Shown: in pieces, positions 58,501-61,500 of the stretch
Layout of the letters: every line of letters begins with the position of its first letter
Position numbering within the stretch: the stretch's first letter is position 1
NCBI RefSeq assembly: GCF_056712565.1
Contig: NZ_CM160072.1
Length of the DNA: 64,000 nucleotides
Reading direction: 5' to 3' (one strand)
Made by a program: the position numbers

Positions 58501-61500
58501 ATGGTTATCGACTAACTGGCAAATTCTGACACCTGCACGACATGCTTCTTCATCATTAGTCGCTTTGACAATAATGATAAATTCTTCGCCCCCGTAGCGA
58601 TAAACCGTTTCGTAATCGCGCGTCCAACTGGCTAAGTAAGTTGCGAGGGTGCGTAATACTACATCGCCGATTAAATGCCCGTAGGTATCATTAACCAATT
58701 TAAATCGGTCTATATCCAACAACATTAAATAAAGATTCAGAGGTTCAGCATTGCGTAACTGATGATCGAAGGATTCATCAAGAACCCGACGACCCGGCAA
58801 TCCCGTCAGAACATCCATACTGCTACGGATCGTCAGCAAATAAATTTTGTAATCGGTTAATGCCGCAGTAAAAGAAAGCAACCCTTCCTGAAAAGCGTCG
58901 AAATGCGCGTCCTGCCAGTGATTTTCAACAATAGCCAGCATTAATTCCCGACCACAGTTATGCATATGTTGATGGGCAGAATCCATTAGCCGAACATAAG
59001 GTAATTCATCGTTATCGAGTGGTCCCAGATGATCAATCCACCGACCAAACTGGCACAGTCCATAAGAATGGTTATCCGTTATTTCTGGCTTACTGGCATC
59101 TCTCGCGACTACGCTGCGAAACATACTTACCAGCCACTGGTAGTGGGCATCGATAGCCTTATTGAGATTTAACAAGATGGCATCAATTTCCGTTGTCTTC
59201 TTGATCATTGCCACTCCTTTTTCACAGTTCCTTGTGCGCGCTATTCTAACGAGAGAAAAGCAAAATTACGTCAATATTTTCATAGAAATCCGAAGTTATG
59301 AGTCATCTCTGAGATAACATTGTGATTTGAAACAAAATCAGCAGATAAAAAAGTGTTTAATTCTGTAAATTAAGCCTGCATTATCGCAATTAAAAGGATG
59401 ACAAATAGCATAACCCAATAACCTAATGGCCCAGTAGTTCAGGCCATCAGGCTAATTTATTTTTATTTCTGCAAATGAGTGACCCGAACGACGGTCGGCG
59501 CGCTTTTCTTATCCAGACTGCCGCTAATGTTGCTCATCTGGTCCGGCTGAATTTGAAAATTATTATAACGGAAGGGTATACAAAAAAAGTAATTTTGCTG
59601 GCGACTGCGAAACGGCATTCGCATTAGCGGTGAAGTTTGCCCTCGCCCAGCTGCTGCAATTACTGCTATAACGAGGCTGGTCTGGCGATAAATCCAGGCC
59701 AGCCATTGGTTGTGTTTATACGTTCAAGCCACGATGTTGCAGCATCGGCATAATCTGAGGTGCCTTACCGCGCCATTGTCGATACAGGCGTTCCAGATCT
59801 TCGCTGTTACCTCTGGAAAGAATCGCCTCGCGAAAACGCCGCCCATTTTCACGCGTTAATCCGCCCTGCTCAACAAACCACTGGTAACCATCATCGGCCA
59901 ACATTTGCGTCCACAGATAAGCGTAATAACCTGCGGCATATCCGCCACCAAAAATATGGGCGAAATAACTGCTGCGATAGCGTGGCGGTATAGCAGGAAG
60001 ATCCATATTTTCCGCCACCAGCGCCCGCAATTCGAAATCATCGACGTCCTGCATTGCTTCGTTTTCTTCCAGGCAATGCCAGCGCATATCGAGAAGTGCG
60101 GCGCTAAGCAGTTCGCTCATCTCATACCCTTTATTGAACAGACTGGCATTACGCATTTTCTGTTGAAGTTCGTCAGGCATTGCGGCCCCGCTCTGATAAT
60201 GCCGGGCGTAGCGAGCAAATACCTGCGGATGTGTTGCCCAGTGTTCGTTGATTTGCGACGGAAATTCGACAAAATCACGCGGCGTGTTGGTGCCGGAAAG
60301 CGTGGCATAACGCTGGCGGGCAAAAAGGCCGTGCAGCGTATGACCAAATTCATGGAATAAGGTTATTACATCATCCCAGAGTAACAACGCAGGCTCACCG
60401 GCAGCGGGTTTCTGATAATTGCAGACGTTATAAATTACCGGGTGCGTTTCATTCAGCGTTGATTGCTCAACAAAATTGCCCATCCATGCACCGCCGCTTT
60501 TTGAATCACGGGCGAAGAAATCACCGTAAAATAACGCCAGCCCCACGCCATTATGATCAAAAATTTCCCACACTCGAACGTCAGGATGGTAGACAGGAAT
60601 ATCAAAACGTTCGACAAACTTAATACCGAAGAGCTGATTCGCGGTCCAGAATACACCTTCATTCAACACCGTGTTTAATTCAAAATATGGCTTGAGCTGC
60701 GATTCATCGAGATCGAATTTCTCACGTCTTACCTGCTCGGCATAAAATGCCCAGTCCCACGGCTGCGCGCTAAACCCGCCCTGCTGCTTATCGATAACCG
60801 CCTGTATGGAGGCTAATTCATCGCTCGCACGTTGACGCGCCGCTGGAACAATTTCCCGCATAAAGTTGAGTGCTGCTTCTGGCGTTTTTGCCATCTGATC
60901 GGCGATTTTCCATGCGGCATAATGAGGAAAACCAAGCAGTTTCGCCTGCTGCACGCGGATCTCCACCAGACGTTGAATGATAGCGCGGGTATCATTGGCA
61001 TCATTTTTTTCCGCTCGCGTCCAGCCCGCAGTAAACAGTTTTTCACGCGTCGCGCGATCGCGCAGTTCAGCAAGCACTGGTTGCTGGGTGGTATTCAGCA
61101 GCGGAATCAGCCAGTTGTTATCCAGACCTTTCTCGCGAGCCGCCTCTGCCGCCAGCGCAATCTCTTGTTCACTCATTCCTGCCAGCTGCGCGATATCGTT
61201 CACAACCAGACCGCCGGATTTATTTGCTGCCAGTAACCGCTGGTTAAACTGGCTGGTCAGGGTCGCAGCTTCTGTATTCAGTACTTTTAATTTTGCTTTA
61301 TCAGCTTGCTCAAGTTTGGCTCCGGCAAGGACAAAACGTTGATGAATCACCTCCACCAGGCGGATGGATTCACTATCAAGCCCCAAGGATTCACGGCGTT
61401 GCCAGACAGCATCTACCCGCGCGAATAATTCCCCGTTCAGATAGATATCATTCGCAAGTTCCGCCAGTTCAGCGGAAAACTGTTCATCAAGACGCTGTAA

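Follow-up and report, generated by a model that had tools for sequence, protein, structure and literature searches.

Remnants of ydeI and ydeJ between dgcZ and dcp in Escherichia coli point to two successive, lineage-specific deletions

Introduction

In K-12-like genomes of Escherichia coli, the interval between dgcZ and dcp harbours two complete genes, ydeI (b1536; 393 bp, minus strand) and ydeJ (b1537; 519 bp, plus strand), and the present study deals with what is left of them in a stretch of 64,000 nucleotides of contig NZ_CM160072.1 (assembly GCF_056712565.1), hereafter the window, whose positions are used throughout unless a comparison locus is named. YdeI is a periplasmic OB-fold stress protein of the YdeI/YgiW BOF family, which also includes Salmonella YdeI/OmdA, and two papers connect it with the tolerance of peroxide and of antimicrobial peptides (PMC3535384; PMC6370654, which cites Pilonieta et al. 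2009). In K-12, the spacer that separates ydeI from ydeJ is bound by RcdA (PMC3535384). YdeJ has been reported as a paralogue of the CinA/PncC family without nicotinamide mononucleotide (NMN) deamidase activity. The K-12-like proteins conform to these assignments: YdeI matches the BOF profile PF04076 over residues 30-130 (E 5e-41) and NF007471, and YdeJ matches the CinA profile PF02464 over residues 19-171 (E 9e-48), the PncC domain TIGR00199 and, with 329 bits, the NCBIfam equivalog NF002972 (gene at L002 2932-3450; L002 is the K-12-like allele). The latter carries the name "2-oxo-tetronate isomerase", and a literature search found no paper linking that name to ydeJ or CinA.

Three alleles of this locus can be set beside each other. 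Compared with K-12 ydeI, the window shares the last 29 codons, the stop codon and the downstream hairpin, but lacks codons 1-101, about 200 bp of upstream DNA and most of the RcdA-bound spacer. Compared with K-12 ydeJ, it shares the last 26 codons, the stop codon and the downstream hairpin that ydeJ has in common with dcp, but lacks 85% of the gene (codons 1-146 with the start, the 36 bp upstream and the TAESCTGG motif), leaving a pseudogene fragment and no CinA-domain protein. An intermediate allele, found in strains 042, IAI39 and CT265 with an 81-bp ydeJ fragment, shares with the window the scar in ydeJ (junction A) and the ydeJ remnant; unlike the window, it keeps a full ydeI and a 240-bp spacer, whereas the window bears an additional deletion of 504 bp (deletion B).

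Results

The gap contains the 3' ends of both genes, separated by 40 bp of spacer

Intact copies of ydeI and ydeJ are confirmed to be absent from the gap between dgcZ and dcp in the window, and in this the original prediction, made from this DNA alone, was borne out. The annotated coding sequences of dgcZ and dcp lie 507 bp apart (an earlier start at 59215, giving 501 bp, traced to a dgcZ open reading frame, ORF, extended to a GTG codon), and no ORF of at least 60 codons overlaps 59215-59715, the longest ones encoding 53, 51, 50, 49 and 47 aa. The anatomy of the gap was read directly from a four-way alignment of the interval in the window, the K-12-like allele, the intermediate allele of CT265 (L003) and a second short allele (L004); IAI39 (L007) and 042 (L008) provided further intermediate loci. 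Similarity to the ydeI-ydeJ region of K-12 is collinear and goes far beyond chance, and the short allele differs from that of K-12 by two discrete gaps with 40 collinear bases between them. Neither the ydeI remnant on the minus strand nor the existence of two separate deletions, 40 bp apart, had been part of the original prediction.

The remnant of ydeJ occupies positions 59592-59671 on the plus strand and comprises its last 26 codons and stop (FAGDCETAFALAVKFALAQLLQLLL followed by the stop codon). It is identical to the K-12-like allele at 76 of 80 nt and at 23 of 26 aa (YdeJ residues 147-172), and to CT265 at 79 of 80 nt. Collinear, in-frame identity at both the nucleotide and the protein level, synteny with dcp, and the same stop codon and terminator identify this fragment as the orthologous remnant of ydeJ. 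The missing part corresponds to a deletion of about 475 bp (deletion A; L002 2896-3370) that took 36 bp upstream of the start together with codons 1-146 of 172, and its scar, junction A, lies at 59591/59592 with 1-3 nt of microhomology. The window has no DNA for YdeJ residues 1-146, which leaves no intact CinA domain of about 155 residues, and the N-terminal (T)AESCTGG active-site motif, LTTAESCTGG in K-12-like YdeJ, falls inside the deleted segment.

On the minus strand, positions 59463-59551 hold the last 29 codons and stop of ydeI (IQPDQMSNISGSLDKKSAPTVVRVTHLQK followed by the stop codon), with 86 of 89 nt and 26 of 29 aa identical to the K-12-like allele and the stop codon unchanged. Here too, collinear, in-frame identity to the 3' end of the gene and synteny with dgcZ mark an orthologous remnant, which RefSeq calls as a TIGR00156 pseudogene. 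Deletion B, of 504 bp (L003 2353-2856), took codons 1-101 of 130 and about 200 bp upstream, and with them the ydeI promoter, the signal peptide and most of the OB fold; an intact BOF protein, with a signal peptide and an OB fold of about 100 residues, is accordingly not encoded. Junction B lies at 59551/59552 and has 2 nt (AA) of microhomology.

Between the two scars, positions 59552-59591 are a 40-bp remnant of the ydeI-ydeJ intergenic spacer, identical at 40 of 40 positions to the intermediate allele and at 33 of 40 to the K-12-like one. The two junctions also differ in which alleles carry them. A 40-nt probe across junction A matches the window, CT265, IAI39 and 042 without any mismatch, whereas a 40-nt probe across junction B is exact in the ATCC 11775 record, has 1 mismatch in the second short allele, and is absent (at least 14 mismatches) from the K-12-like allele, CT265, IAI39 and 042. 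At neither junction were foreign DNA, insertion sequence (IS) ends, target-site duplications or att-like repeats found, native sequence being joined directly, and to judge from these features neither deletion appears to have been mediated by a mobile element. As microhomology at the two scars is limited to 1-3 nt, the deletions probably arose by illegitimate recombination or replication slippage.

Both fragments are already present in the annotation. From 58700 to 60300 the window is 100% identical over 1601 bp to E. coli DSM 30083 = ATCC 11775 (NZ_CP033092.2; L001, whose coordinates plus 57199 give window positions), and in that record RefSeq lists a pseudogene "TIGR00156 family protein, incomplete, missing N-terminus" at 59463-59552 (minus strand) and a pseudogene "hypothetical protein, incomplete", also without its N-terminus, at 59591-59671 (plus strand). 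A strain almost identical to it carries the fragments under the names "YdeI family stress tolerance OB fold protein" and "2-oxo-tetronate isomerase", the latter being the NCBI name for ydeJ.

The two junctions are nested in the E. coli population

The distribution of the alleles was counted among 5426 complete E. coli genomes, 5419 of which matched the dgcZ-dcp query flanks. Of the 5426 genomes, 3618 have the segment lost in deletion A and 1808 lack it; for the segment lost in deletion B, the figures are 4372 and 1054. A 90-bp probe spanning both junctions, which is unable to seed on K-12-type DNA, matched 1781 genomes (junction A), 1038 of them at full length (A and B). The two junctions explain nearly all absences, accounting for 1781 of the 1808 genomes that lack the ydeJ segment and 1038 of the 1054 that lack the ydeI segment. 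In 60 sampled rows of probe matches, all partial matches start at query position 24, as is to be seen where junction A occurs alone, and junction B alone was found in none of these 60 rows, which were sampled across the ranking. Junction A is thus carried by approximately 33% and junction B by approximately 19% of complete genomes; both genes are intact in about 67%, only ydeJ is a fragment in about 14%, and both are fragments, as in the window, in about 19%. These shares agree with the 19/4/6 split among 29 full-length rows of the flank search.

Carriers of both junctions include ATCC 11775, UTI89 and O25b:H4-ST131 strains. Junction A together with an intact ydeI occurs in about 743 genomes, 042 and IAI39 among them, and both genes are present in O157:H7, O111, O145, BL21 and K-12 derivatives. 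We take ATCC 11775, UTI89 and ST131 to belong to phylogroup B2, 042 to D, IAI39 to F, and the strains with both genes to A, B1 or E. With these phylogroups, the distribution fits one ydeJ deletion in an ancestor on the D/F/B2 side, followed by one ydeI deletion in the ancestor of B2.

A few genomes depart from these three alleles. Seven had no match to the query flanks, and E. coli EC1 (NZ_CP058574.1) matches only query positions 1338-1601, within dcp; further rearrangements of the dgcZ-dcp locus therefore exist. Separately, the locus appears inverted in SMS-3-5, and five places matching the dgcZ-dcp query were found on plasmids.

A two-step history of gene decay

Taken together, the remnants, the junctions and their distribution make it very probable that the gap is a decayed, non-functional locus left by two independent and sequential deletions of adjacent, divergently transcribed and dispensable genes. 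In the first step, a deletion of about 475 bp would have taken codons 1-146 of the 172 of ydeJ along with 36 bp on the promoter side, giving an allele with ydeI still intact that would persist in, for instance, 042 and IAI39. The second step, a deletion of 504 bp in the lineage to which ATCC 11775, UTI89 and ST131 belong, would later have removed the first 101 of the 130 codons of ydeI and about 200 bp upstream. Such a history would leave what the window contains, namely the intact dgcZ upstream region, an orphan, putative ydeI terminator, 29 codons of ydeI, the 40-bp spacer, 26 codons of ydeJ and the ydeJ/dcp terminator. Both gene remnants are presumed to be silent and non-functional, because their start codons, promoters and essential domains are gone.

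Several points weigh against this account. The silence of the remnants is itself deduced from what they have lost, and a 53-codon ORF on the minus strand (59624-59463), in which 23 new codons precede the YdeI tail, could yield a product, although no Shine-Dalgarno-like sequence was seen by eye in front of it and RefSeq does not call it. The nestedness of the junctions, with B occurring only within A, derives from counts and the 60 sampled rows rather than from a genome-by-genome comparison, and the phylogroup labels are taken as given. Finally, the order of events assumes vertical inheritance, and the alleles may have spread by recombination.

Retained hairpins and the case for a new function

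Among other explanations, the remnant region might have been co-opted, whether for a small protein (the 53-aa minus-strand fusion or a 50-aa plus-strand ORF), for a small RNA (sRNA) ending at one of the kept terminator-like hairpins, or through a rewired regulation of dgcZ. This we regard as very unlikely, even though the region has kept two strong hairpins, about 1038 genomes carry the allele in a stable, near-identical form, and the RcdA-bound spacer of K-12 (PMC3535384) is mostly deleted in the window.

The first hairpin is an orphaned, terminator-like structure on the minus strand at 59419-59454, just 3' of the ydeI stop codon, with a 14-bp stem and an 8-nt loop. The minus-strand fold of 59470-59400 reaches -23.6 kcal/mol (z = -4.2; equalled by none of 200 shuffles), and the hairpin is present in every allele aligned. 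Its stem is strong, but its U-tract, UUAUUGGGUUAU, is weak, and the terminator scan did not call it. The second hairpin, retained at 59675-59704 (plus strand) between the convergent ydeJ and dcp, is terminator-like on both strands. It has the GC-rich stem and T-run of an intrinsic terminator, with 11 pairs of which 8 are GC, and was called by the scan; its folds reach -25.6 kcal/mol on the plus strand and -18.2 kcal/mol on the minus strand (z = -4.2 and -3.6).

Nothing in the gap argues for a new function. An Rfam scan of 57800-60000 with E values up to 1 gave Toga_5_CRE as its best match in the gap, and the 14 bits of this match are at chance level beside a gathering score of 120. A consensus promoter scan of 59100-59800 found no sigma-70 site where 1.2 were expected by chance, but it also missed the dgcZ promoter and is uninformative. 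An ORF of some 50 codons is nothing unusual, and RefSeq calls no gene in the gap.

Next to junction A, the spacer likewise behaves as unconstrained DNA would. Spacers of junction-A alleles (L003 2657-2896, L007 4329-4568 and L008 6308-6546, each compared with L002 2657-2895) differ from K-12 at 19-21 of 121 positions (16-17%) in the ydeJ-proximal half, but at 4-5 of 121 (3-4%) in the ydeI-proximal half. Such uneven divergence is consistent with an orphaned ydeJ promoter side that would be drifting under relaxed constraint.

One deletion or two, and the origin of the KVILLATA frame

Two further explanations reduce the number of deletions, and both are most improbable. According to one of them, a single deletion of about 980 bp emptied the gap in one step, and the 40 bp between the remnants are filler or chance. 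It would agree with a net difference that looks like one compact loss (1601 bp in the window against 2578 bp in K-12 for the same flanks), but the 40 bp align collinearly, and without a single difference, to the spacer that the intermediate allele has kept. Moreover, that allele, with intact ydeI, exists in its own right in hundreds of genomes, IAI39 and 042 included, and its junction A is the junction of the window, with 0 mismatches over 40 nt.

The other one follows from the original prediction, which tentatively read two short plus-strand frames, one containing KVILLATA and the other AGDCETAFALAVKFALAQLLQLLL, as the two ends of a ydeJ-like CinA gene joined by an internal deletion, with ydeI entirely lost. 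Both strings are indeed present, KVILLATA at 59586-59609 and AGDCETAFALAVKFALAQLLQLLL at 59597-59668. The second of them, closed by a stop codon, is genuinely the YdeJ C-terminus (23 of 26 residues), so that the proposed CinA-family remnant stands in this part; there is, however, no N-terminal end, and the deletion is not internal to the gene. KVILLATA bears a superficial likeness to the LTTAESCTGG region of CinA-family proteins, but it is an out-of-frame reading that crosses junction A, beginning with 6 nt of former intergenic DNA and continuing into ydeJ from codon 147 onward in another frame. Rather than separate gene ends, the two strings are largely shared DNA read in different frames, with an overlap at 59597-59609.

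Other evidence points in the same direction. The K-12 DNA for LRLTTAESCTGG (approximately L002 3030-3070) lies within the deleted 2896-3370, and 59552-59591 matches the upstream spacer and not the 5' coding sequence of ydeJ. The best local alignment to YdeJ scores 20 for the 50-codon ORF containing KVILLATA and 108 for the true remnant, and 29 codons of ydeI survive on the minus strand. KVILLATA was accordingly rejected as an N-terminal piece of YdeJ on score, frame and position.

Polarity and the locus of Escherichia sp. MOD1-EC7003

A degenerate DNA pattern for the YdeJ C-terminus, which has an exact match in the window at approximately 59633-59668, was used to search genome contigs. It returned one locus only, from the unclassified Escherichia sp. 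MOD1-EC7003, and none from E. albertii, E. fergusonii or Salmonella; E. coli was not returned either and seems to be unrepresented in that collection. In MOD1-EC7003 (L010 10200-10720, NZ_PTRE01000081.1), eamA is directly followed by DNA matching window positions 58149-58374 (the mgtT 3' end, the MgrR region and the dgcZ 3' end) and then by DNA matching 59628-59750 (the last ~44 nt of ydeJ and the dcp 3' end). Missing from it are ydeE, mgtS and ydeI altogether, dgcZ for the most part, and ydeJ but for that tail. This locus is like the window in that ydeI and nearly all of ydeJ are gone beside dcp, and unlike it in having different and larger scars, which indicates an independent loss of the neighbourhood. 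Its retention of the ydeJ tail beside dcp implies that the ydeJ-dcp adjacency extends beyond K-12-type E. coli.

The short allele is the derived state, because gene tails without starts cannot be ancestral. There is hence practically no chance that the short gap is ancestral and that K-12-type strains gained ydeI and ydeJ by insertion, a proposal with nothing in its favour beyond the bare presence/absence polymorphism, since the window retains the in-frame 3' ends of both genes with their terminator-like hairpins and MOD1-EC7003 holds the ydeJ end beside dcp behind a different deletion.

Flanking genes and neighbourhood

Both genes bordering the gap are intact according to the RefSeq annotation of the identical ATCC 11775 record. 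To the left, dgcZ, encoding a diguanylate cyclase, occupies 58318-59208 on the minus strand (870 of 891 nt identical to the K-12-like allele), and to the right dcp, encoding a peptidyl-dipeptidase, occupies 59716-61761, also on the minus strand (1983 of 2046 nt identical). Upstream of dgcZ, its presumed promoter and 5' untranslated region (59209-59418, minus strand) is kept and collinear with K-12, and 59209-59462 as a whole is identical to the K-12-like allele at 246 of 254 positions.

Left of dgcZ lie the small-protein genes mgtS (58004-58099) and mgtT (58099-58203), both on the plus strand. Outside the gap and antisense in this region, an Rfam match to STnc560, an Hfq-binding sRNA, covers 58093-58306 on the minus strand (281.9 bits, E 6e-66), and we take it to be MgrR. 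In 042, mgtT is annotated as a frameshifted pseudogene (L008 4552-4655). IAI39 has a gene for a rhodanese-like protein and the regulator gene ftrA as extra genes between ydeE and mgtS (L007 905-2369); neither gene occurs in the window, in K-12-like strains or in 042.

Discussion

The gap between dgcZ and dcp in the window is a case of ordinary, nested and lineage-specific gene decay. Part of this is already known, as both fragments are annotated in RefSeq and the allele is common. A literature search found no paper describing a ydeI/ydeJ deletion polymorphism or treating the allele as noteworthy. What is mildly new is the nested history, spelled out in two steps, together with the frequencies of the alleles.

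That adaptation, and not neutral decay, drove the successive losses of ydeJ and ydeI and of most of the RcdA-bound spacer in lineages rich in extraintestinal pathogens (042/IAI39-type strains, then B2) seems to us very improbable. If it did, the losses might mean an altered handling of antimicrobial peptides or oxidative stress in the periplasm, or a changed regulation of dgcZ and hence of cyclic di-GMP (c-di-GMP) and biofilm formation, and the independent, larger deletion in MOD1-EC7003 would hint at recurrent selection.

Beyond bookkeeping, the importance of the finding is limited. The sequences of junctions A and B could serve as simple lineage markers, and the two deletions explain a difference in gene content between K-12 and the type strain of the species: strains such as ATCC 11775, UTI89 and ST131, here taken as B2, lack both the OB-fold stress protein YdeI and the CinA paralogue YdeJ.

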